Assembly (NCBI GenBank): GCA_024763555.1
Contig: JANTFG010000001.1
Location: 1 to 55,271 of the forward strand
Length of the DNA stretch: 55,271 bases
DNA from: Thermoanaerobaculales bacterium
GTDB taxonomy: Bacteria; Acidobacteriota; Thermoanaerobaculia; Thermoanaerobaculales; Sulfomarinibacteraceae
Reading direction: 5' to 3'
The position numbers and the translations under genes were made by a program. Every line of letters starts with the position of its first letter. The stretch's first letter is position 1. Below the pieces are notes generated by a model. That model saw only the letters and a program-made list of their open reading frames with translations, was not told the DNA's origin and searched no databases. Shown in pieces: positions 18,026 through 48,046 of the stretch.

Positions 18026-18789
18026 AGACATACCTCCATATTTCCTCGTTGATAATCTCGAACAACGAAAACCACTCAAAAACAGATGTCGAGCCACCCT
18101 CCCTTCAGTCGGGCCCGGAAATCCCGGACCACCTTCGATGGCCCACCGGCTGACGACCGATGGACGCCATAGCTTAGCACAGTTAAAAGCAACCTTCATG
18201 CCAGTATTGAGGTACCGAAGGAAACAGAAGGGCCGAGGATGCATTTCGAATAGGCACTTTGCGGGCTTTTTTCTCAGACACCTCAAAGCGCTGTGAAGAC
18301 GGCATTAAGACAAAACCGGATATCTGGACCAGGCGCGCTGCCGCGTTTTCGCTTGACTCCAGCTCCGGGGAGAGCTGCAATAGCTGTCCGGATTTCCGTT
18401 CAACTCCCCGAGAGACTTGTCCGGAAAACCGGGCACAGCATCCAGGGCTGCCCCCGCGTTCGAAGCGCGAGCCGGAAGCAATTCCGGAGCCGGATGCCTC
18501 CGCGGCCTCCAAGCTCCGCCCTCAGAAACAGAGACCGAAATCATCTGTCCCGCATTCCGCTCAATGAAGTACGACCGCATCGGCTCCTGGCCCTGCTCCC
18601 TGATCCGGTTCCGGATTGCTGCTTCGGCCTATCCTCCGGCCCTCGGGTTCTGCCCCTGCATCGGCGTGCTGGCCCTGTTCCTGCTCCGGATTGAAGCGCC
18701 CACCGCCATTTGAACAACGAGATCACCGGTTGACAACCCGGAAGTCCTTGGGGGAGGCAACTCCTGATAGACTATGGGCCGGAGGAACG

Positions 18790-22475: not shown

Positions 22476-22800
22476 CACGGCATGGGCAAGGCTACCACAT
22501 TCACACTCGAAGGCTTGGGAGGGGGATAGGGCACTCGCCGGCCCCCGAGCAGAAGATGCGGTCATCAACTCTCGGGACGACAGCACTCTGAGGCGCATTC
22601 TGAGAGATCGAAGATGGGACAAGGGGAAAAAGAGATGGAGTCAACAGCCTGGGAAGGTGAGCTGGATCACACGACCTGAACACTTGTTCATCGGAATAAT
22701 TTTTGCTTGTGATAGATTAGCATTGAGGTAATCGTTGATCTTTTTGGTGGGATCTCAAGATCTCGACTGCGTGTCACTGATGTTTCTCTTGGGGGCGTAG

Positions 22801-23292
22801 ATGAAGAATCGGACTTTTTCAGCGTTGATCATGGGTCTGTGGATAACTCTTCTCTTGGTCTTGGCTGCGACCGGAACCGCAGCGGGGAGGGATTTGGGAC
22901 AGCACCTTCCGGGCTGGAAGATGGCGCGTTTTTTGCCCCTCCAAGGTCGAATGGTCCTTGAACATGACGGTGAAATGCTGGTGGTTCGGAGCGGGGAGGA
23001 GATCCCCGGCCTTCCCGGCGCCATGGTGAAGACGATCGGTTCAGGAGGTGCGTTGATTGAAATTGACCAGCCGCCCGAGGGGCTCGATGCCGACCAAGAA
23101 CAGTCAAGATATTGGTTGCTGGTGAAATCAACTCGGGATGGGAAGACCGAGGTCATCGTGATCCACGCGTTGCCCGAGGAAGGACTGCTCCCCGAACAGT
23201 CGGTAGAGACCCAGGAAATTCCGGTTTCGAAGACCTCTCCCAGCTCGGTTTTGAAATCTCAGCCTGAGAACAGAGAAGGGAACAAACAGTGA
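22801..23292 (+). CDS. Small (163 aa) secreted or membrane-anchored protein, first gene of the giant-protein operon
   Basis: The signal/anchor is MKNRTFSALIMGLWITLLLVLAATGTAAG. Its TGA (23290-23292) overlaps the GTG start of the giant gene. The middle segment (LVVRSGEEIPGLPGAMVKTIGSGGALIEID) weakly recalls PilP/GspC-type beta-domains, which is a low-confidence impression. Confidence 0.7.
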   Translation: MKNRTFSALIMGLWITLLLVLAATGTAAGRDLGQHLPGWKMARFLPLQGRMVLEHDGEMLVVRSGEEIPGLPGAMVKTIGSGGALIEIDQPPEGLDADQEQSRYWLLVKSTRDGKTEVIVIHALPEEGLLPEQSVETQEIPVSKTSPSSVLKSQPENREGNKQ

Positions 23293-26200
23293 GAAGAGTT
23301 TTCTTACCGCTGTTGGTTTTCGCTCTTGTCGTCACGCCGGGCTCTCTTGCGTGGGCCGCCGGCGATTCGTGCGTCGTCAGTCCCGAGGAATTGGCGAGAT
23401 CGTACTCAAATCATCCGGAAAAGGTGACCCAATCTGGGCTGGGCAGTTGGATCGACGGCATCTATGTCCTTCCATACACCTATCCGGGCACCTACGACAA
23501 AATTGTCGGCGGCAGCTTGAATTCGGCGCCGCGACGGTGGGTTTCGCAAAGCTTCTTCGAGGACAGCCCCGATGCCTACGATTTTGTCGTCATCGTCACC
23601 AATTTCGAATGGGACGCCACCGCCGGCGTGGCAGGGTTCCATATCGGTGTTGCAAACGAAGTTCGAGGTATCGGGTTAGAGGTTTTTGATCAGAGTCAGT
23701 TGTGGGGAAGTGAAAATCTCCAGGGATACATTGATATTCGCTGGCTTTCAGCCTACATCCGGGAGGACGGGAGTCTCGACTCTGAATTCCTAAATGCGCT
23801 CCTCAATCATGAGGTCGGCCATCAGTGGCTGGCTCGAGCCCAGTTCCTCGATGGCGGTACGCCCTCGGATGCCCTCTTGGGAGTAGACGGCGTCCACTGG
23901 AGCTATCTCCTGGATTCGGAGGCATCCTACATGTATGGCTCCGAATGGACCGACAACGGAGACGGAATTTTCACCGCCACCAAGATCAGGGATCGCTACA
24001 GTCATTTGGATCTCTATCTGATGGGGATGCTGGCTCCTGAGGAGGTGCCCGATTTCACATTATTAGTCAATCCTTCGATCCCAAGCGACGGTTACCCCGG
24101 TTTGGGAGACACGATCGAAGCGACCCCTCGGTCAATCAGCGTCTTTGATGTCATCGGGGCGGAGGGCCCGAGGATTCCGGACTGGCGGCAGGCTCAACAC
24201 GAGTTCCGGGTGGGCATGATTTACCTCGTGGATCCAACTATTCCTGTCATGTCGGAAGACATTGAGCGCCTCAACGACATTCGTGCGTCGTGGGAGGAGA
24301 GCTTCTTTCGGCAGACGCGTGGGCGAGGGGTTGTCGATGTCGCGGAACCATCCGATATGCCGGTGGGCGGATCATCCGTTGACCTGACTGAGGCCGTCAA
24401 CTGGTTGGTCTCCATCGGCGCCGGGGGAGTCTGGCGCGATTCACCGACCACCTGGGTCCGGGAAACTGCGGAAGCAATTGCGGCGCTTGATCGAATTGGA
24501 GGTCACGGAGATATCGTCATCAACGGCCTCGAGAACCTGGAGAACGAAACTCCGGTCGCGACCGAGTTGGTCGCCAGGCGCCTTCTTGCCCTGACCCGGC
24601 AAACAGGCGCAGACCTTTCGACGCCGGTCGAAACGCTGGCAGCCAAAATGAAGGCGAGCGGTGGGTGGCCTGCTTTTCCGAGGTACCTTCCCGACTTCAT
24701 CACGACGGCGAGAGCCGTCCGGGCACTGGATGCGGCAGGGGCGGTTGATATCGCCTCCGAGGGCTGGTCGTGGCTGGCGTCTTTGCAAAATCCCGATGGC
24801 GGATGGGGGTGGCAGGAAGGCTTGGGGAGCACGACCCTTGCGACTGAAGAAGTCCTTCTGGCTGCTCAAAGGCTCTTCCCGGACGACTACTGGAATCTTC
24901 CGGCCGTTCAGACGGCGGTTGCATGGCTGCTGGACCACAGGGCGGATGGCGGATTTGGGGAACCCTTTCCGAATACCGAGGCGACGGCACAGTTCCTCCT
25001 CCTCAGTGAGGGGCAGGCCATCAATCAGGTGATCACTCAAGAAGCCGTTGATTTTCTCAAAGTTCGTCAGCAGCCGAACGGCAGTTGGTCGTCGAGTGCT
25101 CATTCGACCGCTCTGGCCATCAACGCATTGGCCTCCTATGCTCTTCCGGACCCGTTTGTCGATGAGGCCCGGGTCTTTGCCGATCCTGAACAGCCTTTTG
25201 ACGACGAGGAGATCGAGTTGTTAGTCGAAATTCGGAACCTCGGGCTTCCGCTCGAGGCGGGAACGCCCTTCCAGTGGGAGGCACGTCTCGCCGACAATCC
25301 CCAGGTGTTGGTCTGGCTGGAAAGCGGCGAACTTCCTGCGGTGGACGATATCGGTTTTGTCACCCTGGGAACGACGATATCCCCGAATCTTCCGGAGGGT
25401 GTCTACGAAATCCGTTTTGTCATCGATCCCAATCGGGAGGTTCCCCAACGGGAACGCTCGAACGATGTAGGGACGGTTCGCCTTGAGGTCCGTTCACATC
25501 CGGACGGTGTCGATCTTCAGCTGACGGACGCCGACCTCAGCCTGGATCCAACGGACATTTCCTCGATACCACAGCCCCTCACCGTAAACGGCATGATCCA
25601 CAATCTTGGTCTTTCCGATGCGACGGCTGTGGTTCTTCGAGTCTTCGATGGCGACCCGGCCGACGGGGTCGTTCTGGGAGAAACAACAGTCGCCGTACCG
25701 GCTCTTGGCCTGAGTGCATTTTCCGTCCCGGCGGTTGTGACCGAGGCCCGCTCGATGACGATCACCATCGTGGCCGATCCTGATCGTTTGACCGACGACA
25801 GTTTTCGCTTTAACAATACTGCTTCGCGGGTTCTACCATTGCTTCATCGGATCGATCTTGAGGTCCTTCCCGGTTCCTTGAACGCCACACCGCCGACGAT
25901 TGTGGTCGGCGAGGACCAGATGCTCGAGGCCGTTATTCGCAATGCCGGAACGGTGGCGGTATCTGATTTCCATGTCATCTTTTCGTATGAATGGGGTACG
26001 CCCGCCGCTCTGTTTCCCATTGAAGACCTGATCGTGACGGAGACATTGGCGCCTGGTGAGACCATCATGGTGTCGGTCGATTGGTCTCCCAACGTTGGCG
26101 GCGATCCGTTGCCGATCCAAGTCGATGTCGATCCCAATGGTGATACCGGTGATACGGACCTCTCGAATAATCGTGCCCGCTTGAATCTGACGGTCCCGCC

Positions 26201-29200
26201 GAGTGATTTGCCCAATTTGGTCATCGGTCCGGAGTCCTTTATTCTGACGCCCGATCCGCCGCTTCAGGGGGCACTTTGTCAGATCGGTGTTGTGATCGCG
26301 AATCCCACCATCAATGCCGCAGGACCCTTCGAGGCGCAGTTGTGGCTGGACGCTGTGGGGACCGGGATCCTCTTGGGATCCGAGTCCTTTGCCGGCATCG
26401 GCGCAGGCTCGACGGTTCAGATGAATTTGGTTTGGGATGTTGTCGAACCCGAGGATCGTCTCCTCTATGCTGTCGTCGACGTCGACGGCGTCGTCGTCGA
26501 GTTCAGGGAAGACGACAATGAGGCCTTCATCGAGCCCGATGTGCAAACCCTGCCGGATCTGGTTGTCACCGGTGGCGGGATCTCGTTTCTGCCGTCATTC
26601 CCCAAGGTTGGGGATGTGGTTCATTTCGAGGTGCTCTTGGGGAATCAGGGCGACCAGGCAAGTTCGGCAACCCTGCTTCAGCTGGTGAGTACCCAAGACA
26701 GCGTCATCGACAGCACTGCCGTCCCTGCGATGGAGGGACACACGGAGATGACTCTCGGTCTCGACTGGGAGACCGGAACCTTCATGGGCGACGCGGCCTT
26801 GACGGTCCGCGTCGATTCTTCCGAGACTGTCATTGAGCTATTCGAAGACAACAACGAAGCCGGCGTCACGGTTGGCGTTCAGGATGCGGATATCTTTTTG
26901 TCCAACCAGATCTTTTCACCCAATGGAGACGCCGTCAAGGACACCACGACGATCTTCTACCGGGCGGGCGGCGAAGTTGAAATTCAGACGGTCGAGGGCC
27001 GGTTGGTGAGAAACCTGGTTCCGGAGAATGGTGAGGAATACATCGTATGGGATGGTCTGAGCAATCGTGGCAATCCGGCGCCCGACGGGCTCTACACCGT
27101 AACCGCGGGGGAGACGTCTTCGTGGGTGGTTGTCGATACCAACCACTACGCCATTACCAACGAGTTGGAACAGCGCCTCCTCGTCGGTTTCCTCCAACCC
27201 AGGGTTCCCGGACAGGACCGTCCCTGCAGTTGGAATCCGGATTGTAATCTTGAGCGGAGCTGGTTCACCTCGATGACCGGTTCTCCGGTCTCCGAGGAGA
27301 TCTACCTGGTCGAGCGCTACCACGCCGAGGGAACCGCATTTGATGAGGATACCTATTCCCTCTGGATGTTCGCCGCCGATCAGATGGTCGAGTTGGGTGA
27401 ACTTCCGGAGAACCTGAGCCTATTTGGGGTCGATGCCTCGGGTTCCCGATTTGTTGTTTCGGGGGGGGAACCATATCGTCTACTCAGGGTTCCGGAAATG
27501 ACGCTTGAAGACATTACTTCTCAGGGTGGATGGGGATCCAGTCCCTGGATCTCACCGGACGGCCTTTGGCTCTTATGGGTATCGAGAAATGACGATACGG
27601 TGTACCTCGACAGCCTTGACAACTCTGGGGAGACCTACAGCTTCAACCCGGAAGGCGTTGACGACGGATCGATTTGCGGCTATTCAGTATTCTGGACCCC
27701 CAGAGGGGAAGCAGTCGTTTCTCTCAAGACCTGGAATAATTCGGGATATTTCTATCGCATTTCGACCACGACGGAACCACCGAGCGCATCAAGCATCCAG
27801 GCCCAGGGCTGGAACGGGAGTTGTGGTGGTGGCGGAATACCATCGACGATCGAAGATGTTCAGGCAGGGGATCCCGACCTGAACGCCAAGAGCGAGGTTG
27901 GAGGCGATGGCGAAATCTTGGAAAGTGGTCTTGATTTCGATCAGGACACGTTGACCTGGTTGACCCTCGAGGGCGGTGGATACGGAGGCTACGGCGGATA
28001 CGGGGAAGCAGGCGGCTATGGTGGCTACGGAGGCTCCGAATTGTCCGCGTCGATCTTTGCCCTTGAAGACGGCGCCGCCGGCGAGTCCGGCAGCTCAAAC
28101 CTCGGATGGTCAGAGTGGTCCGATGTCTACTATTCGCTGTCCAATGACGGTGACATGTACACCGTTTCGTGGAGCGAGGGTTATAAATCTGAAGGATCGG
28201 CTCAACCGGCTGGAGGATCCGATCTTTCGGGCGGCGCCTATATCTGGTTGGATTCGGCCCAGGAAACCGGCCGGGACCCGAAAGCCTGGTCCCCTGTTGA
28301 TCAGTACCTGACGAACTGGCGGACCGAAGAGGTTCGGGGCCTGCCCCTGCGCATGGATGACACCCTGTGGACTCCACCGGACACCTATATCGTCGGTAAC
28401 CTCAATACGGCTCAGCAGTATTACGGTGACCAACTGCCGTATTTCACGCCGGCCGCCAATCTCAAGATGCGGGTCAAGCCCCGCGTACTCTTCGGTGACG
28501 GCGGGGTCGATCTGTGGCTTTTGGCGACCGACCGCTACCTTGAGAGTTTTTTGTTGGAGTATTCCGACCTCGATGTTGATCCTGATGTCTATTTTCCGAT
28601 AGGTCTGCCGTCAAATGAGGCGCTCTATAACGAGCGGTGGGGAACTTGGCTGCCTCCGGGGAACGGCCGGTACCGCGTTCGTCTGACGGGGACCGATCGT
28701 GCCGGTAATCAGCGCTCAGACTCGCGCCGAGTGACCTGGAATGGTGACAACGACATTGCGAATCTCTACACAGAATCGCGGTATCTATCGCCGCGGTCGA
28801 GCATTGGCATCAAGGACACACTGATCTTCCATTACACGGTGTTGCGTCCGGCCAACCTGGTGTTTTTTATCGTTGATTCTGATGGTGAGACCGTCAAAGA
28901 GATCAACGTTGCCGCCGACGAAATAGGCCAGAAGACGACGACCTGGGACGGTACGGATTCGTTTGGGAACCCCGTTACTGACGGGGAGTACCTCCTGGCA
29001 TATGGCGAAGCCTCCTGGCCCGTGATCGTCGACAATGCGGCGCCGTCGGCAACCCTTCGTATTGAAGCTACAGGATACGCGAGGGAGACCAGAGAGGTCG
29101 TCGATGAATACGGACAGCCTATTCTTGATGCCGATGGAAACCCGACCTGTGTGTCATCAAGCAAGGACGAATACCTCAACGAGGTCTTCGGGGCGGTCGA

Positions 29201-35200: not shown

Positions 35201-38200
35201 CGGGGAAATCAGCCTGACGTGGGCCGCTCCGACGCCACCTCCCGACAACCCGGAAAGTTATCGTCTCTATCGGGCGACCGGGATCGGGGAGTTTTCACTC
35301 TTAGTCCAGGTTCCTGCGGATCGTCTTGAATGGCTGGACACCGGACTTGAGGAAGGTCTGACCTATCGGTACCGTGCCACGAGCCTCGCCTGGATTGATG
35401 GTGTACTCGTGGAAAGTGATGCTTCTGCCGAGGCATCCGCCGTTGTTGAATGCTCCACTGTGCCTCCACCGGTACTCTTGGTACCGACGGTAGCCGGTGA
35501 GCCGATTGACTGGCCTTCGGACTCAGCCGACATCGGTGGGCGGGCATGGCCCGGTTCGGATGTCACGCTTCTTCAGGACGGTTCCCCTGTCGCTTTTGTG
35601 TCGATTGATCAGAACCTTCCCGACGAAACTCATCCACTTCCGGGCTATGGGGATTCCGGTCCGATTCTGGCGCTCAGCCAGGACGGTCGGGTGGCCGCAT
35701 ATTCTGTGTATGACGGCGACAGCAAACTGATGATTCGGGATCTGGAGAGTGGGAAGACCACGACGATTGTCAGACCTGATCCGGGCTTCATCGATGTGGC
35801 TGCGGACGGTCATACTGTTGCTTTCATCGACCGTGTGTCCGGTCAAGAAGACGTCTTCGTTGCCGACGTGGCAACCGGTGAGGTCAGCCGTTTGACCGAC
35901 GACGGAGAGAGCAAAGAAGGCCTTGCCTACTCGCCCGATGGTGGTTGGGTCGCCTACATAGAGCGCGGTTCTCAGCGGCGTCTCCTACTCGTGGAGACGG
36001 CGACGGGTTCGGTCAGAGAAATCTACTCGACCAACTCTTGGAATGACCTTGGTTGGCCGGTCTTCAGCCCGGATGGGGATCTGTTGGCCGTCAAAGGTGA
36101 CTGGCAGATCATTGTCTTCGACCTTTCGACTGGCGAAAACCAATATATCTGGACCGATTGGAGTGCGGCCATGACCCGCCAACCGTTCTCCGCGGATGGT
36201 CGGTATCTCTGTTGGACGGAATATCCGAATTCTATCCCGGAGACGGCGATCATTAAGGTCTACGATCTGATCGAAGATGCTTCTATCGATATTCTCTCTG
36301 GCCAAGAGGGTGTGTTTGCCGGCGCTTTCGTCGATCAGAACACACTGGCATTTCTCAGGTTCCTGCCCACCAAAGCGGGCAGCATCAACGGTGGCGACGT
36401 CGAGGTAGTCTACTTGTCGTTGCTGGACGGTTCAGAAGATGTTTTGACCGCGAGGGTTGCTCTGGATGCCCTTGCCGGAACCGGATTAGACGGCGAATGG
36501 AGCCTGATCGCGACCGCCGATGGGTCGCTATGGATTCCGCAACAAGAAGAGACTCTCATGCTATTCCGGCCGACCGGGCTCTTCACCGTGGCGGAGGTTC
36601 CACTGCATCCGGGCGCCAACGAGTTCATCGCGCGCCAACTCTTCGACGGCATATCGATGGACTCCACGTCAATCGAAATCAACGTGGCGCCGGACCTCTT
36701 CGGTGACGCCGATGTTCTGGCCGTCGGGGCGACGCCGGCATTCCCCTTGACCGGGGACTCGGTTCTGATCGACGGCGTCGTTCAGAATGTCGGAAATGCT
36801 TCGATGAATCATCTCGTCGTGACCCTCAATCGAGTCGATAAGAACGGTCTCTCTCATTCGGTTGAAGTCGATATCGTGGATCTGGCGCCAGGCGCCTACC
36901 ATAGGGTTCGCTCAACCTGGGATACAACCGGGTTGACGGGCGACAATACCTGGATCCTGTCAGCCGATCCGATCGACGCCATTCCAGAACTCGACGAAGA
37001 GAACAACAGCGCTTCAGTCCTGGTTCCCCTCCGAGAGGATCTCGGACTCGAGGCGTCTATTTCGACGCCTCAGGCTGAATATCAGCTCGGCGGACTTGTT
37101 GGGTTCGAGATCACTGTTTCAGCCAACGGAGGGCCCCAAGAAACCCGGGTCGTGACTCAGGTGGAAACCGCGAACGGTGACTTGGTGGCAGTCCTCGATG
37201 ATCGGACCTTGAATGACTTTGGTCATTCGACCGAGACCTGGGGCCTCTCGTGGCCCTCGGACCAGGTCTATCCCGGTGATTACAGGGCGCGCGTGATCGT
37301 CACAGCCGCCGACGGCGACAACGCCGAAGCGGATGTGGACTTCTCGTTGTTCGTCCTTACCGAGGTTGAGGCCGCAGGCTCGGCCGATCGAGCCTCGTAT
37401 CACCGTGGCGATCGGGCAATATTCGAGGCTGAGGTGCGCAATACCGGCCAGGCATTGGTCTCAGGCGCCGTCGTTGAAATGGCTGTTGAGCCGCTTGGCG
37501 GGGGTAGCACGATCGCTGTCGAGACACGAGATCTCGTGACCCTGCCCGGGGGCGCCGATACGGTGTTGTCCTGGAGTTGGGACACTGTTGGAGCACCCTT
37601 GGGTGCACTTCAATTCGTGAATCGGGTCCTCGCCGAAGATGGAGACATCCTGGCCGTTTCGGCGCCCTATCCCTTCGTCATTGAGAGTGTTGGAGCGGCA
37701 TTGAGTGGTTCTGTCTTCGCAGATCCCGGCCGCTTAGAACCAGGTGAAACCATGTCGATCACCGGGGAGGTTGCCAACCTTGGGGATCAAGGTCTCTTCG
37801 CACTCGAAGTTGCGGCCGAGATTATTGATCTCGAAAATGGTCTTGTCATCGACCGGTTGACCGATATCGTCGACCTGGGAGTCGGTGGGACAGCGTCGTT
37901 GTCGTGGGCCTATACCCCGACGATGACGCGGCTGGATTCTTATGTCGTTCTCTTGTCGGCAAACCGGCAGGATGTCACGCCTCCAAGGATTGAGCCGCTG
38001 GCATCGGCGACCTTTACCCTTGTGGACCTGACGCCACCGGATCTTGTCTTGCTGGATCCGGATGCAGGGCCGGTCTGCGATATCGTCGATATTCGTGCCC
38101 GGGCGACGGATGCTTTGACCAGCGTCGTTCGAGTGACCTATCTCCTCGATGAGCGTACGCCCGCTGTGGCTCTGGATCTGGAGTCGCTGGAAGACACCGT

Positions 38201-40352: not shown

Positions 40353-43300
40353 AACGGCTTTGGAGAGAGACTATGAATCGACGCTTCGGTTTTGCTATTG
40401 CGGGGACACTCGTATTCTTGTTCCTGATCATTCCCGGAATTGGTATCGCAGATGACATCGGCGCTTGCGTAGAGCACTTTCCGTTGTTGCAGAGGTCCCT
40501 GACCTCAAAGGGACAGGGTCTGAACATTGACTCCGAAGACTTGCTTCGAGAGCTCAAGATCGAGCGGGCCCTGTGGCTCGATGAAGTCGAACACCAGCGA
40601 AAGGTCCTCAATGCAGCCGGAGCCCCGCAGGATCGTCTTCTCGCTGCCGACAGTGTCATGAGGCGTCGTTTTGGCGAGATTGCGGCACTGATCCACGATG
40701 GATCACCCCTTTCGGTTGAGGCTCAAGAAGCCCTTCAATCATGTGGCGAAGCCCGGCGATCCTTTCCTTCGGGTCCCCTTTCGACGGCTTCGGTTCTGCC
40801 TGAGTTTCGACACAGGACGCCGGCTCTGCCCGACCCCTTATTTCCCGAGGCTTATCGGGATACGCCCTCGGAGTCGATGCGGGAGGCGGTTAAGAAAACC
40901 CGATCTCATGAGAAGTCCGGATTCGAACCCGAAGGTCCCGATCTGATTGCGGCCAAGGCATCCGAGTTGGGCGACGACCCGATGGCATTGTATGCCTTTG
41001 TGTTGAATGAGATCAGGCCCACCCTTTCGGTCGGGGCCATGAGGGATGAGGTTTCTGTTCTTCGAACCGGCGAGGGCAACGATGCCGAACAGGCCGGGCT
41101 CTTAGCGGCGCTTTTTCGCGAAACCGGATATCCGGCCCGGTTGGCCTGGGGCATTCAGGAAATCGGTGTCGAAAAGCTACTGGACCACTTTGGCGCCGGA
41201 GATTTCCGTGCGCTCGAAAGAACCCTTACAGCGGCCGGTATTGCGTGGGAACCCGTACTTGTCGGCGGTTCTCCCGCCGCCTACCGGCTGGAGCGGGTCT
41301 GGTGTGAAGTTTGGCTTCCCTTTGGAAATTTCAGAGGTGTGGTTCTCGATGCGACAGGCGCTACGTGGGTGACCCTGGATCCGTATCTGAAGAACTTCGA
41401 GGAGCAAGAAACCCCTGCGGTTTTGGACAACATGAACTTCGACGAGGGACCCTGGATCGATGCCTATCTGGCCGGCGCCGATTGCACGGCCCCTCTTTCC
41501 GAGGCCGGCGCTTGCCCGGCCCCCAGGGATTTGCTCATTGACGAGGTTGCTGCCTTTTTGGAGGGTTCTGTAACCACAGTTGAAGAGGCGGTGACGCCGC
41601 CACCAATTCGAAGCCACTCCGAGCCGATCTTGCCGACGGCAATGGGCGGCAAGATCGTCGCCGTCTCCGGCGTTGATGTTGAACTTCCCGAGGCATTGCG
41701 GCACCGAATCCGTATGGTGGCCAAAGACGGTGTGCTGACACTTTTTGACGGCGAGTTTTCGGCAAGTGACCTCGTTGGCAAGGAGGCCGTCATCTGGTTC
41801 GTTCCAGCGACCTTTGACGACGAAGCAATCCTGGCAGCCTACGGTGGCGAACTGTGGCGTGTGCCGCCCTATCTGATCAACCTCACCCCTGAGTTGCGCA
41901 TCGACGGCGAGGCAGTGCAGCGTGGCGTGGAAGGCATCGGGATGGGCCGTGCTTTCGAGTGGGAATTCGTGTTGAGTGCTCCTGGTGGGAATTCAACCGG
42001 CTTCGTCAACACCGCGTTGGCCGGGGTTCCGACCGGATTTGGTCTGGCGCCCGGCTTCTCGGGCTACGAGCCGGTCTTCGGCGAGCCGAGTAATACGCTC
42101 GAAGTTCTGGCATCCCTTGCCGGGTCATGGCTTGATGGTGTTGGCACATTCGAAAAGGAGATGGCCGCATTGGCCGGCGGGGCTGTCATACACCCCTTCC
42201 CCAACATGGTATCGGTCGCCAGTGTGATGCGGGTCGAGAGTTCCCTCGGCCTGATTGAAGGGCTGGAATGGTTGGGCGTCTCGGTTGATGCCGACGTGCA
42301 TGCCTCCCGTCTTGTCGGGGAGGCTGAGGCGCAGCGTCAGTGGTTGGAAATGGTCGAACTTGATGCTTCTGCCAGGGAACGCCTGTTGTTTGAGACGGGG
42401 TACGCAACTCCCTCGATCAGTGCCGACAAGGCTCTGATGCTCGGGGCGACGACTGGTGTGACTATTCATCACATCGATACGGCTAATCTTGGGGCTATCT
42501 TGCCGACCTTGCCGTTTGACGCCGACGTTCTTGATGAGATCGAAGGCTGGGTGCTCGCCGGGGGCGAAGCATGGGTGCCTGCTGAAGAAATCCAGACGCT
42601 GGAATGGACCGGAGTGGGTTATCGATTGTGGGACCCCGATACCGGCGAAAATCGTTACCAGTTGGCGGGCCGTCTTTCAGGCGGCATGACCGCGGCGCCG
42701 CCGTTCGAGGTGGTCGAAGGCCTGAGGGATCCTCTGCAATATCCCTCACCCGAGTACGTCAACTCGGACCCGACGGCTGCGGTCTATATTGAGATCTTCG
42801 ACGGCAACCTCCAGATCGGTACGGCCGGCGACGAACTGTCACTGCAAAATAACGCCATCCCACTGAGGGCCCGGGTCTTCGACGTCAGCGGGCGACCGGT
42901 CAAGGATGCGCCGGTTGAGTTTCAGGTTCTGGGGGGTGGAGGCGGCTTCGGCGGGCCGGGAATCGGCACGATCTCGGCGACCAGCAATGCCGTTGGTATT
43001 GCCGAGACCGTTCTGACCCTTGGGGAGCACACCTCAGACAATCCCTACTATCTATTGTTTCCCGATGATGAACATTCGACCCGATGCGGCTTGACGGTCG
43101 TGACGGCAAGCGTCAACGGGTTTGGAATGCCTGACGTCTTCTGGGAGATGGCGGAACCCGGAGACCTCGATCAGCTGCTGACCCCCCGGGGGACCTCGGT
43201 CGAGGCACTTCCACACTTGAGTGCCGGCAGCCTCGTAGCCGTGCCCGCCGATCAATACGAGAACCCGATCTCCAATGTGGAGGTCACCTACGTGCTCAAC

Positions 43301-46300
43301 GGGAGCACCTCGTCCGAGCCCGATGAAGGGCCCGAACTGCTCAGTCGCGATGAAAAGGAGCAGTGCCGTCCCGGGCTGGTCATGGCCGGAGAATGTCCCG
43401 GGGGCAGTGGATCGAAGACCGATACTGGCGGTGTGACCGGAACGTGGGTCTATTTGATCATCGGTGACGAAGACATTACCGTAACGGCGACAGGAACTGA
43501 TGATTCGGGATCGGCCGATGTGACGTTCTCCGGGCATTCCAGGACCCAGAGCGTTCCTGGCGATTGGGCCGTTGGATGGCCGGTCATTCTGGTCAGCAAA
43601 AGGGGACAACCGGTCAATCAGGACGGTGAGATCCTTGAGGCCTATCCGCCGGGAGAACAGTCTCTGGCGCTCCAGGTCTCGTTGTTCATCGTGCGTGAGG
43701 ATTTCTCTGTCCATGAGTGTGACAACGACAACAGGTATTGCACCGTTCCTCTTGGGACCTATCGGACGAAACGCCTTGGGCAAGACGAAGCTTCCGGCTG
43801 TCAGCCTGAGAGTTGCGGGGGGGGAACGCTGAATGAACGGGGACAGGTTCATTTTTCGGGCGCCGGGGCCGACGCGACGATCAGCACCCAGGACGCTGAC
43901 GGCAACTACACCCATCAGGTCACCATGCCAACTTCTCCTGGGCGTTATGAAATCACAGCCTCCCCGACAGTCTGGATCGCCGTTCCGAAGATTCCTGACG
44001 ACCCGGACTACGTGAATGAAGTCGTACCGTGTCCCTCAGGAGATGATCCGTGTGGCGCCAGGATGGAGCTTGACGAAGTCTCCGACGCGAACTGGGAGAC
44101 CAATTTTGTGCTCTGGTCCGTTCAGGCCCAGGTGACCGAACCGCCCCCAATCGTCAAGTTGGGTCACAAGAACCGGCACGAAGAGGTTACCGAGTTTCCT
44201 TTCACCATTGAGCCCTCAAACTATCCGGCAATGAATACAGTCGTGTACTTTTTGGAAGACGGCCAGATTCGTCTGACAGCCTTGGCCGAGGGTCAACAGG
44301 CGGCAGATCCCAAAGCGCTCGTCCCACCAGGTGAGATCTTCGCTCACCCGGAAGGTGACCACAAGGTAGGAATCTACCTCAACTATGGCTGGGTCTGGCA
44401 GCCCTATCCCGGTGAGCCGGTGTCCATGGTGATGGAGGGTGAGCAGGTTGATTTCAGGGTTGTGATGAGTGACCTTGACGTTGACTCGAACAACAACGAC
44501 GGGATTGGTGAACTTGAGCGGGACGACCTGGAAGATTCCCTGGAAGCAGGCGGTGGAGATTCTCGCGCTGCGGAAGTTGATGCCCAGGTGCCTCGGGGCA
44601 AGATCGTCTTCGTCAATCACAATGACGATGATAATGATGGCGTACCGGACTTTGCTGATCTTGAGATGAATGGGGGACACCAGGAGCGGAGCATGGTTCC
44701 AATCGTTATTGAAGTACGACCAGAGGGTGGCGACTATGAGGACGTATGGATCACCTTCCATTACGATGGCCAGACCGAGGGTCAGATCGATGCTCTCGAG
44801 GCGGCCTATAACGTGAATTTCCCGGACCCAGAAATGAAAATTGGTGGTCTGAAAAAGCTGCAAGACCCAGAAACCTGGGGCTACCCAGATGGAGATGGGG
44901 AGGGCTATCAATACAAGAATTTCTCCCAATACAAAACCGGCCAGTTTCGGATCTGGAACGTCGAGGATCCCTCGGATCCTCGAGGAAGCTATGAGTTGGT
45001 TGAATCGGGTGATGAATATCCGGTGACTTGGTTGGGTTTTGACAGTGATCATCAAGAGAAGACCTTCTGGGTCGAGGCGATCAACGGAATTCGTGTCGGC
45101 GATCCCTGGGAACCGGCGGAAATCCGTGTTGAAGTCTCTCTTGAATCCGGTGACGTTGCGCAGGCAGTTGAGGATACGATCGTGCTCTATCCGGTTGAGG
45201 GCAACCTCGGGGTCAATAACGGCAATAACAAAAATAACGATACTATTTTGCGTCCCGGTGTCCCGGATGAGACATTCACCATCGATGAATATGACGAAAT
45301 GGTGGAGGATCAGGGTGATGGATTCAGGTTCTGGCGATCAGAGAGAAGTTACTTTTCGGTTGAAAACATTGAAGATTTGGCGCCACTGATTCTCGAAGTC
45401 CACCAGGAGCTGCTGGATGCCGGTTTTGAGTTGGCATTGTCCCTTGATATTGATGGGGGCGGTGATGATTCGGAGAGCTTGAGGCTGGGTCGGATGCCGG
45501 AGGGAACCACTCGCCTCAGTCATCTCAGGCTGATAGGTACGGCTAATAAGTTGGTCTACGGGGACAATGAAGAATTGCCGTGGAGTGAGGTCGTCAAGAC
45601 GGGCGATCCTCCGAATCGTCTGCCGGAGCTATCCAAAGCCAAGAGCGAGCTAGTGTTCTCTGTGAAACCAGGCGATGGCGGGATTGTAAGGGCTACGATT
45701 CGAATGTTCGCTGCGCGGAAGGAGCATTGGTACCAAAGTTTCACAGATGATAGAGATTGGCAGGCTGTTGATTCGGTTCGGTTGACCATAGCGCCAATCG
45801 AGAGTTTTTTCTCAGCCTATACTGTCCGCAAGTTTGATTCTGAAAACAAAGAAGAATTCACCGAACCCGACAACGTATTCGAGTACCCCACCGAGGTCGT
45901 CGATGATGATCCCAAGACCATCTTTGGAATGCGCTTCCCTTTGGCACGCCATGTCGATGATTCATTCGGAAACGGTATCCCCAAAACCGGAACCCCCAAC
46001 CCCGATATCAAGCCTTCTCTGGTGTGGCTACACGGTTACAATGTCTCTTTTGATGCCGCCATCGACTGGGCACGGGTCGCCTACAAGAGACTCTACTGGG
46101 TGGGTTATCGCGGAAACCTCATCCTGTTCACCTGGAGGGGTAACCCACAGGGGGCAACTGGTTTCGCCCACTTCGGATTGGCAAACCAGTGGGGCCTCCA
46201 AACATCCGAAAGCCTACGGATTTTCTTGCGGGATGAGATGAATGTTCCTCCCGAGAAGATCCACGTTTTGGGTCACAGTCTGGGGAATCTGGTTGTTTAT

Positions 46301-47047
46301 GATGCGATGCGTTTGGACAGGGCAAAGGGGAACTCAGGGAAGCTCTTCCACAATTTCATTTCGACCGAGGCAGCGATCTGGGGAGAGACCTTGTGGCCCC
46401 AAGCGCCGGTCGAGTATTGTCCTGATGGCGGCGGGCTCTTCTGCAACCCGATCACTTACAGCATTCGGGAACTCCAGTGCTCGTCATGGACATTCTGGTT
46501 CAACCAACAGGGCCGTGAGGCGTGGAAAGCAGTCGATAGGATCTATCACTCCTACAGTCCTGACGACAATGTATTGACCCTCATTATGAGGGAAAGTGAT
46601 CGTTTTCTTCGACAAGCTCCGGCCCAGAACCCTCACTACTACCGACCGGAATGCTCTGATGATGACGATTTTAGAGTTCCCTGGACGCCGAGGCACGCAA
46701 ACGGAGACATCGATATGAGTTTGCACCTCAATCCCCAGCTTTGTTTTGGAGACAGTTTTCATCCGGGTTGCCCGGCGCTGCTGGATCCTGACGACAGGAG
46801 ATTTCTACCTTATACCCATCTGGCCCTCGAATTGCCGGCTGGTGCGGCATCCAATCCGATGGTTGGAACTTCTCACGGGAATTTGACGTTGAACGATGTC
46901 AATGCCCGGGACCTCGGTTGGAACGATTCATTTTCGCCGACGGGAGGCCATAGCAACCTCAAGGGGGAGACTTTCCCCGATATTTTCCACTGGTGGGAAG
47001 CACTGGTATCGGACAATGGCGCCTTGCCCAAGGGAAGGGAATTCTAG
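40349..47047 (+). CDS. Giant (2,232 aa) secreted or anchored protein with a degenerate transglutaminase-like core, Big_1-like Ig modules, acidic Ca-binding-like loops and a C-terminal alpha/beta-hydrolase
   Basis: The ATG overlaps the stop of the 5,687-aa gene (ATGA), with GGAGG 5 nt upstream. The N-terminal hydrophobic segment is FGFAIAGTLVFLFLIIPGIGIA. The domain evidence is given in the sub-features and findings. Confidence 0.9.
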   Translation: MKRLWRETMNRRFGFAIAGTLVFLFLIIPGIGIADDIGACVEHFPLLQRSLTSKGQGLNIDSEDLLRELKIERALWLDEVEHQRKVLNAAGAPQDRLLAADSVMRRRFGEIAALIHDGSPLSVEAQEALQSCGEARRSFPSGPLSTASVLPEFRHRTPALPDPLFPEAYRDTPSESMREAVKKTRSHEKSGFEPEGPDLIAAKASELGDDPMALYAFVLNEIRPTLSVGAMRDEVSVLRTGEGNDAEQAGLLAALFRETGYPARLAWGIQEIGVEKLLDHFGAGDFRALERTLTAAGIAWEPVLVGGSPAAYRLERVWCEVWLPFGNFRGVVLDATGATWVTLDPYLKNFEEQETPAVLDNMNFDEGPWIDAYLAGADCTAPLSEAGACPAPRDLLIDEVAAFLEGSVTTVEEAVTPPPIRSHSEPILPTAMGGKIVAVSGVDVELPEALRHRIRMVAKDGVLTLFDGEFSASDLVGKEAVIWFVPATFDDEAILAAYGGELWRVPPYLINLTPELRIDGEAVQRGVEGIGMGRAFEWEFVLSAPGGNSTGFVNTALAGVPTGFGLAPGFSGYEPVFGEPSNTLEVLASLAGSWLDGVGTFEKEMAALAGGAVIHPFPNMVSVASVMRVESSLGLIEGLEWLGVSVDADVHASRLVGEAEAQRQWLEMVELDASARERLLFETGYATPSISADKALMLGATTGVTIHHIDTANLGAILPTLPFDADVLDEIEGWVLAGGEAWVPAEEIQTLEWTGVGYRLWDPDTGENRYQLAGRLSGGMTAAPPFEVVEGLRDPLQYPSPEYVNSDPTAAVYIEIFDGNLQIGTAGDELSLQNNAIPLRARVFDVSGRPVKDAPVEFQVLGGGGGFGGPGIGTISATSNAVGIAETVLTLGEHTSDNPYYLLFPDDEHSTRCGLTVVTASVNGFGMPDVFWEMAEPGDLDQLLTPRGTSVEALPHLSAGSLVAVPADQYENPISNVEVTYVLNGSTSSEPDEGPELLSRDEKEQCRPGLVMAGECPGGSGSKTDTGGVTGTWVYLIIGDEDITVTATGTDDSGSADVTFSGHSRTQSVPGDWAVGWPVILVSKRGQPVNQDGEILEAYPPGEQSLALQVSLFIVREDFSVHECDNDNRYCTVPLGTYRTKRLGQDEASGCQPESCGGGTLNERGQVHFSGAGADATISTQDADGNYTHQVTMPTSPGRYEITASPTVWIAVPKIPDDPDYVNEVVPCPSGDDPCGARMELDEVSDANWETNFVLWSVQAQVTEPPPIVKLGHKNRHEEVTEFPFTIEPSNYPAMNTVVYFLEDGQIRLTALAEGQQAADPKALVPPGEIFAHPEGDHKVGIYLNYGWVWQPYPGEPVSMVMEGEQVDFRVVMSDLDVDSNNNDGIGELERDDLEDSLEAGGGDSRAAEVDAQVPRGKIVFVNHNDDDNDGVPDFADLEMNGGHQERSMVPIVIEVRPEGGDYEDVWITFHYDGQTEGQIDALEAAYNVNFPDPEMKIGGLKKLQDPETWGYPDGDGEGYQYKNFSQYKTGQFRIWNVEDPSDPRGSYELVESGDEYPVTWLGFDSDHQEKTFWVEAINGIRVGDPWEPAEIRVEVSLESGDVAQAVEDTIVLYPVEGNLGVNNGNNKNNDTILRPGVPDETFTIDEYDEMVEDQGDGFRFWRSERSYFSVENIEDLAPLILEVHQELLDAGFELALSLDIDGGGDDSESLRLGRMPEGTTRLSHLRLIGTANKLVYGDNEELPWSEVVKTGDPPNRLPELSKAKSELVFSVKPGDGGIVRATIRMFAARKEHWYQSFTDDRDWQAVDSVRLTIAPIESFFSAYTVRKFDSENKEEFTEPDNVFEYPTEVVDDDPKTIFGMRFPLARHVDDSFGNGIPKTGTPNPDIKPSLVWLHGYNVSFDAAIDWARVAYKRLYWVGYRGNLILFTWRGNPQGATGFAHFGLANQWGLQTSESLRIFLRDEMNVPPEKIHVLGHSLGNLVVYDAMRLDRAKGNSGKLFHNFISTEAAIWGETLWPQAPVEYCPDGGGLFCNPITYSIRELQCSSWTFWFNQQGREAWKAVDRIYHSYSPDDNVLTLIMRESDRFLRQAPAQNPHYYRPECSDDDDFRVPWTPRHANGDIDMSLHLNPQLCFGDSFHPGCPALLDPDDRRFLPYTHLALELPAGAASNPMVGTSHGNLTLNDVNARDLGWNDSFSPTGGHSNLKGETFPDIFHWWEALVSDNGALPKGREF
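41000..41370 (+). other. Transglutaminase-like core with the catalytic Cys and His positions substituted
   Basis: GEGNDAEQAGLLAALFRETGYPARLAWG aligns to the G-x-C-x-x-F-A-x-L-x-x-A-L-x-R-x-x-G-I-P-A-R motif with Asp245 (gat 41081-41083) at the Cys position. ERVWCEVWLP aligns to H-A-W-x-E-V with Arg316 (cgg 41294-41296) at the His position. The Asp of the triad is retained (VVLDATG, gat 41348-41350). Confidence 0.55.
46016..46560 (+). other. C-terminal alpha/beta-hydrolase (DUF900-like esterase/lipase) domain with a GxSxG nucleophile elbow
   Basis: SLVWLHGYNVSFDAAIDWARVAYKRLYWVGYRGNLILFTWRGN is followed by IHVLGHSLGNLVVYDAM. GHSLG is at 46271-46285 and the Ser1977 codon agt at 46277-46279. 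Candidate acid and base residues lie in YSPDDNVL and SPTGGHSN. Confidence 0.6.
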
Positions 47048-48046
47048 ATGTCTGGATTTCGGAGTTGTTCATTCAATACGGGAGTGGGTTGTTTTTTTGT
47101 CGGTCTGAGCCTCCTTGTTTTGACTGGCGTTTGCCCAGCGGATGGCCTTTCTTCCTTTCGAACCGTTCCCATCAGTGTCTCCGGAACGGTCATCGATGCC
47201 CAGGGCCGCCCTGTTCGGGAAGTCCAGATGACGATTCTGGAGGGGCGGCCTCAGGGCAATTCGTTTGAGATCTCCTGGAGTCGTCGACACCGAACCATTG
47301 ACGGTGGGTTCGAGGTTCGATGTGAGGATTGCGCCGACCTTCGTCTTCGGTTTCAAGCCGAGGGATTCTATCCGAAGGAAATCGGTTTCAAGCTGACCGA
47401 TGCCGAGGCCAAGAGGTTGTTAACGGGCCAAGACGGCGATGGTTTTTCCTTGGTTCGCCAGGGACTGATCGTTGAGCTTGAGCCCAGTGTCAATCCCGTG
47501 AACCTCGACTGGACTTCGGTGGTCCTTGACGTGCTGGAAGATGGGCCGATGAGGGTTCTGGCCGCAGAGAAGGGGCGGGTGAGAGGGACGATCGAACGGA
47601 CGGTTTTCTCAAAAAGGCAGAAGGCCGGCGGGGGGGGCGGAGGCCCGGCGATGGTGGCTCTCAAGGCCGCCCCAGGGCAGTTCGAAGCTCTCGTGCGAAA
47701 GACGACCGGTTATGAGGCCGAGGCGGCACCGAACGCCGTCTTTCTTGAGTTTTCCGGGGGAATGACCGGCGTTATCCCCATTGATTCTCCCGAAGGAAAC
47801 TACAAGACCGTGTATCGGAGCATGATCGAGGCGCCGGAAGAGGGTTATGTCGATCACCTGGTGATCGACCCTAATAGTGATCGGAGGCAGTATTTCTACT
47901 GCCGGATTGGAGATCTCTTCGGGAAAGGAAGCGTATCCTCTTTGAGGGCCGCTTACGGGCGTGATTCCATTCGAATCCTCGAAGTAGGCATCGAGGTCTA
48001 CCTCAATCGAGACGGCAGCAGGAACCTGGATTCACTCGAATACTGA
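47048..48046 (+). CDS. Secreted 332-aa protein with an N-terminal CarboxypepD_reg-like domain, last gene of the operon
   Basis: The ATG immediately follows the TAG of the upstream gene (47045-47050). The hydrophobic N-terminus is GVGCFFVGLSLLVLTGVCPA. ISVSGTVIDAQGRPVREVQMTILEG..FEVRCEDCADLRLRFQAEGFYPKE is beta-sandwich-like. A Gly6 tract is present. Confidence 0.75.
   Translation: MSGFRSCSFNTGVGCFFVGLSLLVLTGVCPADGLSSFRTVPISVSGTVIDAQGRPVREVQMTILEGRPQGNSFEISWSRRHRTIDGGFEVRCEDCADLRLRFQAEGFYPKEIGFKLTDAEAKRLLTGQDGDGFSLVRQGLIVELEPSVNPVNLDWTSVVLDVLEDGPMRVLAAEKGRVRGTIERTVFSKRQKAGGGGGGPAMVALKAAPGQFEALVRKTTGYEAEAAPNAVFLEFSGGMTGVIPIDSPEGNYKTVYRSMIEAPEEGYVDHLVIDPNSDRRQYFYCRIGDLFGKGSVSSLRAAYGRDSIRILEVGIEVYLNRDGSRNLDSLEY

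Follow-up and report, generated by a model that had tools for sequence, protein, structure and literature searches.

Four consecutive genes on the forward strand (g1 to g4, Table 1) of a 55,271-nucleotide (nt) stretch of contig JANTFG010000001.1 from a Thermoanaerobaculales bacterium, hereafter the window, probably represent one copy of a widespread four-part cassette that delivers polymorphic toxins on a giant scaffold and by way of a secretin. This reading draws on homologies, domain composition, conserved linkage and covariation; toxicity, immunity, docking, the secretin route and delivery on contact are predictions that follow from it. The firmest part concerns g3, which very probably belongs to a class of polymorphic toxins with an inactive transglutaminase domain that has been known since 2011-2012. 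On balance we also favor g4 as the predicted immunity protein of the g3 hydrolase. That the giant protein g2 is a delivery scaffold is plausible, at a little under an even chance in our judgment, and, more tentatively again, g2 and g1 together may form an unrecognized apparatus dedicated to the delivery of Sec-exported toxins, and with it a new kind of contact-dependent antagonism across many diderm phyla.

Organization and integrity of the operon

An earlier note, made from the letters of this DNA and a list of its open reading frames (ORFs), had described four same-strand ORFs with GTGA, ATGA and TAG-ATG junctions, and this is exactly what we found: the stop codon of g1 overlaps the start codon of g2 at GTGA (CAGTGAGA), g2 and g3 overlap at ATGA (GCATGAAA), and the TAG of g3 is followed directly by the ATG of g4 (TCTAGATG). 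A purine-rich run resembling a Shine-Dalgarno sequence lies 5' of each start (GGGGGCG, GAAGGGAA, GCGGAGGG and GGGAAGGGAA for g1 to g4, respectively). No sigma-70-like site was seen by a simple scan, even 5' of g1. The further claim that the operon has no room for internal promoters holds at the junctions, but not within the coding sequence, where promoters could still lie. A Kyte-Doolittle scan gave one N-terminal hydrophobic segment for each product (residues 4-28 of g1, 3-24 of g2, 12-41 of g3 and 11-31 of g4), in keeping with the signal-like N-termini that had been reported for all four, and one extra segment at the C-terminus of g2 (residues 5663-5687). The signal peptide of g2 ends in AWA.

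The start of g1 is called differently in the NCBI annotation, where a 113-residue product (P0011) equals g1 at 100% identity over 69% of the length, and it appears that a shorter g1 without the signal segment was annotated. Because four relatives keep the full 163 residues and a conserved N-terminus, the comparison favors the long form as the probable product.

The contig is metagenome-derived and giant ORFs are a known hazard, and it might be asked if the operon is an artefact of assembly or annotation, that is, a chimeric contig or a set of ORFs joined by frameshifts. However, residues 20-5666 of g2 align with a 5,667-residue relative in a single high-scoring segment pair at 49% identity, g3 aligns end to end with a 2,231-residue relative at 73% identity, and repeat scans of the operon found no tandem, direct or dispersed DNA repeats. 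Because g2 and g3 align over their full length with relatives and the operon is free of repeats, mis-assembly or hidden frameshifts would be very unlikely. A g2 frame of 5,687 codons cannot have arisen by chance. The end-to-end collinearity extends to independent relatives of near-equal length (5,667, 5,696 and 2,231 residues), and relatives show the same junction overlaps, which makes an artefact scarcely credible.

Table 1. Position of the four genes, of their domains and of the gene divergent from g1, numbered from the first letter of the window (aa, residues of the product).
Feature	Position	Strand	Description
663-aa polytopic membrane protein	20631..22622	-	C-terminal tetratricopeptide repeats (TPR); divergent from g1
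g1	22801-23292	+	ORF, 163 aa, ATG start; probably bitopic or secreted, GspC/PilP homology-region-like beta domain (family profiles)
g2	23289-40352	+	ORF, 5,687 aa, GTG start
g2 head domain	23361..24443 (aa 25-385)	+	Invariant HExxH at aa 174-178 (nt 23808-23822) and invariant H203-W204
g2 alpha/alpha-toroid	24456..25208 (aa ~390-640)	+	Prenyltransferase/squalene-cyclase/TED-like repeats; SQHop_cyclase_C E 6.6e-7
g2 CARDB array	25236..27098 (aa ~650-1270)	+	Pfam CARDB E 1e-36
g2 PD40/TolB-type beta-propeller	35703..36233 (aa ~4139-4315)	+	NCBIfam propeller_TolB E 7e-13; Pfam PD40, DPPIV_N
g2 C-terminal tail	40236..40352	+	...PAPIPDLGTFGRLLLLLLLIGAASAVLRRVA, then stop; IPxLG motif, transmembrane helix, basic end
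g3	40349-47047	+	ORF, 2,232 aa, ATG start; very probably polymorphic-toxin type, with signal-anchor, conserved trunk and replaceable C-terminal payload
g3 N-module	40919..42703 (aa 191-785)	+	Inactive transglutaminase core, then ~440 aa without known fold match
g3 variable C-terminal payload	44597..47044 (aa ~1417-2232)	+	Lower G+C; homology break
g3 DUF900 lipase-like alpha/beta hydrolase	45986-47044 (aa ~1880-2232)	+	GHSLG at aa 1975-1979 (nt 46271-46285)
g4	47048-48046	+	ORF, 332 aa, ATG start; predicted exported, payload-specific partner (covariation with hydrolase; N-terminal hydrophobic segment)

g3 has the trunk of a polymorphic-toxin class

A homology search with g3 identified 13 proteins (g3 itself, P0014, included) with a common N-terminal part and differing C-terminal parts. 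Eight of these have DUF6531, RHS_repeat and TEN_YD-shell domains, and two of the eight end in a nuclease-type tip, Tox-GHH (PF15636) or LHH (PF14411). The DUF900 hydrolase end was found in four proteins: P0014, P0015, P0016 and, outside the 13, the product of a gene at locus L011 that came from a context look-up. The part shared with g3 ends at about residue 985 in comparison with the Rhs-type relatives and at residue 1375 in comparison with a 1,790-residue relative (L007), and only hydrolase-type relatives align to the C-terminal end of g3. Relatives of about 3,500 residues carry 3-23 YD motifs in addition to RHS_repeat and TEN_YD-shell. A trunk-alignment scan of the species-representative genomes of GTDB yielded 269 relatives or loci, found in Acidobacteriota (the closest, at 51%, in Thermoanaerobaculia), Lysobacterales, Andreprevotia, Geobacteraceae and Desulfobulbaceae, and also in Multivoradales, Acidimicrobiia, Nitrospirae and Elusimicrobia.

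The trunk contains a transglutaminase-type domain that has lost its catalytic residues. Pfam Transglut_core matches residues 209-345 (nt 40973-41383) with an E-value of 4.3e-7, the catalytic Cys is replaced by Asn244 (GND, nt 41075-41083), and the His position of the triad is an Arg in g3 and its near relatives (ERVWCEVW). The motif G-N-D-x-x-Q-A is invariant in 43 sequences. The domain does not come strictly right after the signal, being separated from the hydrophobic segment at residues 12-41 by a helical or disordered linker of about 170 residues. In a model of the N-module built on an 11-sequence alignment (residues 191-785; predicted local distance difference test, pLDDT, 87.6; predicted template modeling score, pTM, 0.87), only the first ~150 residues match transglutaminase and cysteine-protease folds (3isr, probability 0.99), and for the remaining ~440 residues Foldseek found no fold match in the PDB. 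Direct matches were few, as most segments of g3 had none in Pfam or NCBIfam, Big_1 was weak, and a sequence search of the PDB gave nothing beyond a marginal alignment to pancreatic lipase. The degenerate transglutaminase core, the Big_1 match and the GxSxG hydrolase that had been read from the letters of g3 all hold.

The earlier statement that the operon bears no hallmark of a known giant-protein system needs to be divided. It is correct for the letters of the window, in that neither g2 nor g3 had an RTX, TpsA/TpsB, autotransporter, Rhs/YD or type IX secretion system C-terminal domain signature at threshold in Pfam and NCBIfam (CHU_C scored 26.7 against a cut-off of 27, at residues 1206-1270, away from the C-terminus). 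It does not extend to the family, since the N-terminal ~985 residues of g3 are homologous to Rhs/YD toxins.

The payload of g3 varies together with the downstream gene

The C-terminal end of g3, taken in isolation, matches DUF900 (PF05990; E 1.5e-6; 28.3 bits, the cut-off being 20.5) and aligns around its nucleophile with pancreatic-type lipases. HSLGN is invariant in 12 relatives, and a C-terminal His is near-invariant. Lipase-like hydrolases (Tox-ABhydrolase domains) are recognized payloads of polymorphic toxins. The G+C content, about 0.59 in the rest of the operon, drops to 0.51-0.535 at 44.6-47.0 kb, starting where the homology of the g3 trunk ends, and is 0.56 in g4 and 0.62-0.63 in the genes downstream. 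The extent of the low G+C is exactly that of the variable g3 payload, with a weaker drop over g4, which suggests that the payload module was gained by recombination.

We compared 44 g3-like genes, two of which are open at the edge of their locus, and their downstream neighbors. Genes of the Rhs class encode about 3,500 residues with YD motifs, and the genes downstream of them encode 64-319 residues and were all singletons in an all-versus-all BLAST. Genes of the hydrolase class encode 1,950-2,330 residues (besides two longer ORFs) without YD motifs, and 12 of them are followed by a g4-type gene of 314-359 residues; at g3 loci, g4 homologs occurred only after hydrolase-type g3 genes. The hydrolase-class downstream proteins form two BLAST clusters, one from Acidobacteriota, which includes g4, and one from Desulfobacterota, and the two are joined by hhalign (96.8%, E 2.3e-10, 246 columns). 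Homology of the C-terminus and of the downstream gene coincided in 30 pairs, with no pair homologous in the downstream gene only (Fisher p ~1e-35, a value that is indicative only, as the pairs are non-independent). An N-terminal hydrophobic segment is present in all 12 g4-type proteins versus four of the 27 encoded downstream of Rhs-class genes (p 5e-7), a pattern that would fit an envelope-acting lipase on the one hand and cytoplasm-acting nuclease-type payloads on the other. One of the Rhs-class downstream genes encodes a SUKH/SMI1-KNR4 immunity protein (E 4e-20), SUKH/SMI1-KNR4 being a prototypical immunity family.

Homologs of g4 also occur alone, at 44-48% identity and with an extra N-terminal DUF4124. 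One of these, P0005 (L001, 10001-11101), is encoded just 3' of TamB/BamA-family genes, its genome measuring 4.77 Mb, and the 10 kb around it contain neither a giant nor g3. A Geobacteraceae locus (L062, 15445-20254) contains three tandem g4-like paralogs and an orphan 472-residue trunk fragment. In Pfam, g4 gave a weak CarboxypepD_reg beta-sandwich signal and no Lipase_chap match, and it matched no named immunity family. Domains of the CarboxypepD_reg type are found in two other products of the window: a secreted protein with four CarboxypepD_reg/SdrD_B-type repeats (2046-4016, forward strand), and an outer-membrane protein that resembles TonB-dependent receptors and has CarboxypepD_reg at its N-terminus (15032-18286, reverse strand). 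The g4 relatives likewise start with a weak CarboxypepD_reg-like domain.

On account of the covariation with the payload, the signal pattern, the orphans, the tandem arrays and the drop in G+C, payload and g4 have, at the level of signatures, the appearance of an exchangeable toxin-immunity module. The description of g1 and g4 as two small accessory proteins does not find support: g4 is payload-specific, and g1 carries a domain of its own type, discussed below. A generic accessory role for g4 is ruled out by its tracking of the payload, and the main alternative for it is a foldase-like helper. Lipase-specific foldases are membrane-anchored proteins of about 340 residues that are encoded just downstream of their lipase.

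Such a helper is part of the mega-adhesin multi-enzyme complex that was first proposed for the operon, a surface-tethered assembly for attachment and for the breakdown of extracellular polymers and lipids, with g2 as adhesin-protease, g3 as surface esterase or lipase, g4 as steric chaperone of the hydrolase and g1 as export helper. The invariant HExxH of the g2 head, the intact GHSLG nucleophile elbow of g3, the abundance of adhesion-type modules and the N-terminal anchor of g4 agree with this proposal, as does the conservation of the hydrolase/g4 pair across Acidobacteriota and Desulfobacterota, where a hypervariable pair might be expected of a toxin. However, in most relatives the same trunk and giant carry Rhs shells, nuclease-type tips and SUKH genes, which a nutritional role leaves unexplained. 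Orphan g4 genes, and three tandem paralogs beside an orphan trunk fragment, are typical of immunity genes and not of foldases, and the beta-sandwich signal of g4, weak as it is, comes with no Lipase_chap match. We consider the complex possible but unlikely, and less well supported than toxin delivery.

The giant protein g2 and its family

The head of g2 contains HEVGH at residues 174-178, and its H, E and H do not vary among 19 relatives of 35-57% identity. Besides this motif and the His-Trp pair at residues 203-204, about 30 further positions are invariant in these 19 diverse sequences. An AlphaFold2 model from the 19-sequence alignment (pLDDT 86.9, pTM 0.87) had no fold match in the PDB by Foldseek (best E 0.75, TM 0.12), an M61 peptidase appearing only at rank 11 (E 4.5), and the head had no sequence match in Pfam, NCBIfam or the PDB. 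A few of the 19 members showed weak Reprolysin matches (Reprolysin_3 in three, Reprolysin_5 in two and Reprolysin_2 in one), with E-values no better than 0.0045. Of the zincin head proposed earlier, the HExxH motif stands, and is invariant, but the zincin fold does not, since the confident model is without any match in the PDB; the label is a motif-level guess.

The head is followed by an alpha/alpha-toroid with additional weak Prenyltrans and TED_complement matches and a profile match to the cyclase 8paj. A CxEQ thioester motif, which would have suggested an alpha-2-macroglobulin-like protein, was looked for in the toroid and is absent. After the CARDB array, and up to about residue 5600, g2 contains FlgD_ig, Big_3_3, Big_13, Big_7, RGI_lyase-beta, F5/8-C, fn3, more CARDB and PKD modules. 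The earlier outline of g2, in which an HExxH head precedes numerous beta-sandwich modules and a tail resembling a sorting signal, is borne out by these domain calls.

The family of g2 is large. A HMMER search with residues 1-400 against 1.84 billion representative proteins (50%-identity clusters) found 3,346 at E<=1e-3 and 633 at E<=1e-30. The head is N-terminal in almost all of the best 150 matches, and 90 of these 150 are longer than 4,500 residues. Nine relatives with 28-57% identity in the head follow g2 collinearly through most of their sequence, and the architecture is orthologous, not an arbitrary string of Ig repeats. A repeat-only adhesin is ruled out by the collinearity with distant relatives and the lack of DNA repeats.

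The tail of g2 consists of IPDLG, an L-rich helix at residues 5663-5684, and RRVA. It had no match to any hidden Markov model (HMM) at E<=10 and does not reach the TIGR04174 cut-off. Tails of orthologs scored 21.8 (L014), 19.4 (L013), 19.1 (P0027) and 17.8 bits (another) against TIGR04174 IPTL_CTERM, for which the cut-off is 20.5, and they also match the sorting-signal part of midcut_by_XrtH. Because the orthologous tails match TIGR04174 near its cut-off, it is reasonable to read the tail of g2 as sorting-signal-like. No exosortase-like gene was detected with Pfam within the 55-kb window. The C-termini of giants (P0027-P0176) are of at least four unrelated kinds: IPxLG, transmembrane helix and RR; helical with an LLRTYQxxW-like motif; beta-rich with VKFDRAAV...PF.A.D; and acidic with Asp/Ser-rich runs or an LDAYN..C motif. 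This variety suggests that the C-termini are different anchoring or partner modules according to lineage, and the IPTL-like anchor appears to be specific to this clade.

Linkage of the giant and toxin genes

Of 51 kept GTDB loci with at least 8 kb of sequence upstream, 39 have the giant and toxin genes next to each other, and two gene orders occur among them. In 34 of the 51, between 2 and 9.4 kb of giant-family sequence lies directly upstream of the g3-type gene on the same strand. Five further loci, from Geobacteraceae and a metagenome-assembled genome (MAG) of Acidimicrobiia, show a permutation in which g3 comes first, followed by a g4-like gene, in some loci an IS200-like gene, a g1-like gene and then the giant. 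Look-ups that started from g3 homologs found a giant directly upstream wherever upstream sequence existed (6,191, 6,408 and at least 2,976 residues), and those that started from giants found a transglutaminase-type gene directly downstream every time. Overlapping stop and start codons are frequent. Homologs of the four genes, in short, do co-occur elsewhere in conserved order. Cultured carriers include Dokdonella fugitiva A3, Tahibacter aquaticus DSM 21667 and Andreprevotia chitinilytica DSM 18519.

A single uninterrupted ORF encodes giant and g3 in two MAGs of Acidobacteriota type that are independent of one another (L013, ~9000-9700; L014, the same as L006, ~2300-2700). The order in these fusions is ...EIPTLG, transmembrane helix, RRR and about 40 basic residues, g3 signal-anchor, g3 trunk. 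The joint is topologically consistent with a helical hairpin and recalls 'midcut' exosortase substrates, a sequencing error being possible. These fusions are strong 'Rosetta-stone' evidence that the giant and g3 work side by side. At L061 (4975-19915), in the cultured strain T. aquaticus DSM 21667, a g3-type gene of 4,979 residues comprises about 1,675 residues of Ig-domain, giant-like sequence, the trunk and an Rhs region, with a separate 983-residue ORF upstream; it may be another giant-toxin fusion. At two Geobacteraceae loci (L048, 16272-16943; L077, 16855-17517) a gene resembling an IS200/REP-associated tyrosine transposase lies between g4 and g1.

An explanation that would dispense with a joint function is that the genes are independent neighbors: toxin cassettes would tend to insert 3' of a large and highly expressed gene for a surface protein, and the role of the giant would be its own, such as adhesion, an S-layer-like coat or predation. 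The 12 of 51 loci with no giant nearby, the IS200-like transposase genes between g4 and g1 in L048 and L077, the recombination to which the low-G+C payload points and the wide variation of the giants' C-termini could all be accommodated in this way. Against it, the adjacency recurs across Acidobacteriota, Gammaproteobacteria, Betaproteobacteria, Desulfobacterota, Acidimicrobiia and others in two gene orders, stop/start overlaps are frequent, the two in-frame fusions are independent of one another, and the N-module of g3 occurred only in this arrangement among the contexts inspected. We regard independent neighbors as improbable.

The same arrangement could also be compared with a Tc (ABC) toxin, with the giant as the TcA-like, receptor-binding translocator and the g3-type protein as the TcB-TcC cocoon, which would dock on the giant and be injected into a target, either eukaryotic or bacterial. 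In most relatives an Rhs-cocoon toxin does indeed follow a large protein of many domains, and the giant has a beta-propeller and many Ig-like modules of receptor type. However, none of the scans gave TcA, TcB or SpvB similarity in sequence or fold, the g3 of the window is without a cocoon, the immunity-like genes imply bacterial targets, and no phage-lysis-type release genes lie nearby, leaving an analog of the Tc toxins very improbable.

g1 resembles GspC and PilP

The g1 protein has an N-terminal signal or anchor segment and a beta-rich domain of about 90 residues. When a 12-sequence profile of its family was compared with the PDB, GspC ranked first and second and PilP was also in the list. 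A 51-sequence profile searched against 177,635 PDB sequences matched GspC (7oio, E 1.1e-4) and PilP (3jc8, 4.2e-4), then 2lc4 (0.017) and 2y4x (0.02; PilP), the GspC homology region (3oss, 0.047), OutC (6hcg, 0.06) and two more PilP chains; GspC, PilP and OutC filled the first six places and accounted for eight of the 14 listed matches. In a Pfam scan of the family, member by member, 27 of the 51 matched T2SSC (best E 4.4e-7) and 10 matched PilP. These matches identify g1 as a putative GspC/PilP-type domain protein. The established role of the GspC/PilP domain in the machines for type II secretion and type IV pili is to bind the outer-membrane secretin at its N0 domain.

In all 12 loci that were inspected by eye (the window, L003-L005, L011, L092, where the ORF is uncalled, L093, L048, L062, L075, L077 and L035), the start of the giant is immediately preceded, and often overlapped, by a g1-family ORF. 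A scan of metagenomes with the head alignment gave at least 543 further loci, and a g1-family HMM matched directly upstream of the head in 48 of 75 kept metagenome loci with at least 700 nt of upstream sequence.

No gene for a secretin, GspE or GspF was found in the window, nor in the annotated gene lists of those related loci that were inspected. The only secretion-machinery gene of the window encodes a lone GspH-type pseudopilin (N_methyl and GspH; 9926-10516, forward strand) with no other type II secretion system (T2SS) or pilus genes around it. Because this GspH-like pseudopilin and the TonB-dependent-receptor-like protein flank the operon, the organism can be taken to have an outer membrane.

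Genes adjoining the operon

A counterpart of the 663-residue membrane protein encoded next to g1 occupies the same place in both of the closest relatives (71% identity in L005 and 63% in L003), though the genes beyond it differ. Distant cassettes do not have this protein, hence it is outside the conserved core; it may be an additional component, for instance a modifying enzyme, that is particular to the clade. On the other side, an 843-residue signal-peptide protein with no Pfam match (48410-50941, reverse strand) converges on g4 with a gap of 364 nt; it ends in ...LRVSLLWRW, an aromatic C-terminus typical of outer-membrane beta-barrels.

A model for toxin delivery by the cassette

In the model that we favor, all four products would be exported by Sec. 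The g3 protein would be a Sec-exported toxin with a trunk (residues ~40-1375) and a replaceable payload, here a lipase-like Ser-His alpha/beta hydrolase instead of an Rhs-encapsulated toxin, and g2 would be the long surface scaffold or delivery vehicle of the toxin. The dead transglutaminase module would dock the g3 toxin on the giant, and in this clade the IPTL-like helix would hold the giant beside the N-terminal anchor helix of g3. Coupling of the giant, and perhaps of the toxin too, to an outer-membrane secretin encoded elsewhere in the genome would fall to g1. On contact, the lipase-like payload would attack the envelope of the neighboring cell, and g4, in the periplasm, would protect the producer and its kin from the hydrolase. 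If g2 and g1 are indeed a dedicated apparatus, which as stated above we hold tentatively, the dead transglutaminase would be its docking adaptor and the payload, be it Rhs cocoon or lipase, would be exchangeable.

Several observations weigh against this model. The g3 of the window itself has no Y.YD motif, no RHS match in Pfam and no recognized pre-toxin or cleavage motif. The conservation of the hydrolase/g4 pair across phyla would equally fit a housekeeping exo-enzyme with a dedicated helper. Apart from the 12 of 51 loci that have no giant within the available sequence, 27 of the 75 head loci have no detectable g1 relative, and most giants in other lineages are without a transmembrane tail, which means that a membrane pairing of g2 and g3 is not general. 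Finally, g1 by itself has no Pfam or NCBIfam match, its assignment to GspC/PilP coming from family profiles of modest E-value, and the window contains no secretin or T2SS cluster, the lone GspH-like pseudopilin being 13 kb off.

To our knowledge, how polymorphic toxins with only a Sec signal cross the outer membrane and reach their target cells has never been explained. The cassette names concrete partners for their delivery, a conserved giant (the 3,346 clusters at 50% identity given above) and a secretin-adaptor-like protein, and the cultured carriers make the model open to genetic testing. Two of its large domains, the HExxH head of the giant and ~440 residues of the toxin trunk, have confident models without a match among solved structures. 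If true, the model would add a new route of interbacterial toxin delivery and explain what one of the commonest giant-protein families in bacteria does.

Comparison with known systems

The earlier note had suggested an undescribed cell-envelope system. In a narrower form this stands, as the open-access literature and bioRxiv, which made up our search (subscription-only articles excluded), contained no description of the giant family, of its GspC/PilP-like partner or of the linkage to toxins; it does not stand for g3, whose class is known. Placement in an already characterized system likewise applies in part, to g3 and g4 only. A preprint on bacterial teneurin-like proteins was considered as a prior description and rejected, as it concerns other proteins.

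The closest counterpart of g3 is the class of polymorphic toxins with an inactive N-terminal transglutaminase domain described by Zhang, de Souza, Anantharaman, Iyer and Aravind (2012, Biol Direct 7:18; PMC3482391). In the parts of that paper available to us, bacterial Ig domains at times adjoin the transglutaminase, an anchoring role is suggested for it, and toxins with only a Sec signal are filed under 'T2SS/Sec-dependent'. Like these toxins, g3 has a signal or transmembrane segment and then a transglutaminase-fold domain stripped of its catalytic residues, a conserved trunk with a variable C-terminus, and a matching gene immediately downstream; predicted Sec-dependent export, with no type V, VI or VII secretion marker, and the occasional adjacency of Ig domains are further points in common, and the homologs of g3 are exactly such Rhs toxins. 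Unlike them, g3 has no RHS repeats and carries its DUF900 lipase-like payload after a non-Rhs middle region of about 900 residues. The same parts of the paper make no mention of a ~6,000-residue giant upstream, of a GspC/PilP-like gene or of the ~440-residue module after the transglutaminase core.

The hydrolase and g4 resemble the Tle/Tli lipase effector-immunity pairs of type VI secretion systems (T6SS) in that a GxSxG alpha/beta-hydrolase payload is followed by the gene of a signal-peptide-bearing partner, but g3 and g4 have no T6SS context and the hydrolase is of DUF900 type. Similarly, g1 shares with GspC and PilP proteins (3OSS, 7OIO, 2LC4, 3JC8) its small size, N-terminal membrane anchor and ~90-residue beta domain, but it is without a PDZ or coiled-coil part, and its gene lies outside of a T2SS or pilus operon with no secretin nearby and is translationally coupled to that of a giant, substrate-like protein. 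The C-terminus of g2 is like the IPTL-CTERM/PEP-CTERM signals (TIGR04174) in its motif (IPDLG; IPTLG or IPTLH in relatives), transmembrane helix and basic cluster, and differs from them in that g2's own tail is below every HMM threshold and in that two MAGs have the signal inside the ORF, with g3 continuing in frame after it.

The giants of the Omnitrophota (West-Roberts et al., 2023, bioRxiv 10.1101/2023.11.21.568195) are, as far as the portions of that preprint at hand describe them, also very large, exported, multi-domain proteins; their genes are associated in the genome with components of type II-like secretion, and an action on other cells has been proposed for them. They are, however, other proteins in another phylum, often longer than 25,000 residues and with SecA-like domains. 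Next to them lie complete T2SS-like loci, each with more than 10 genes, and no transglutaminase-type toxin partner is mentioned in those portions.

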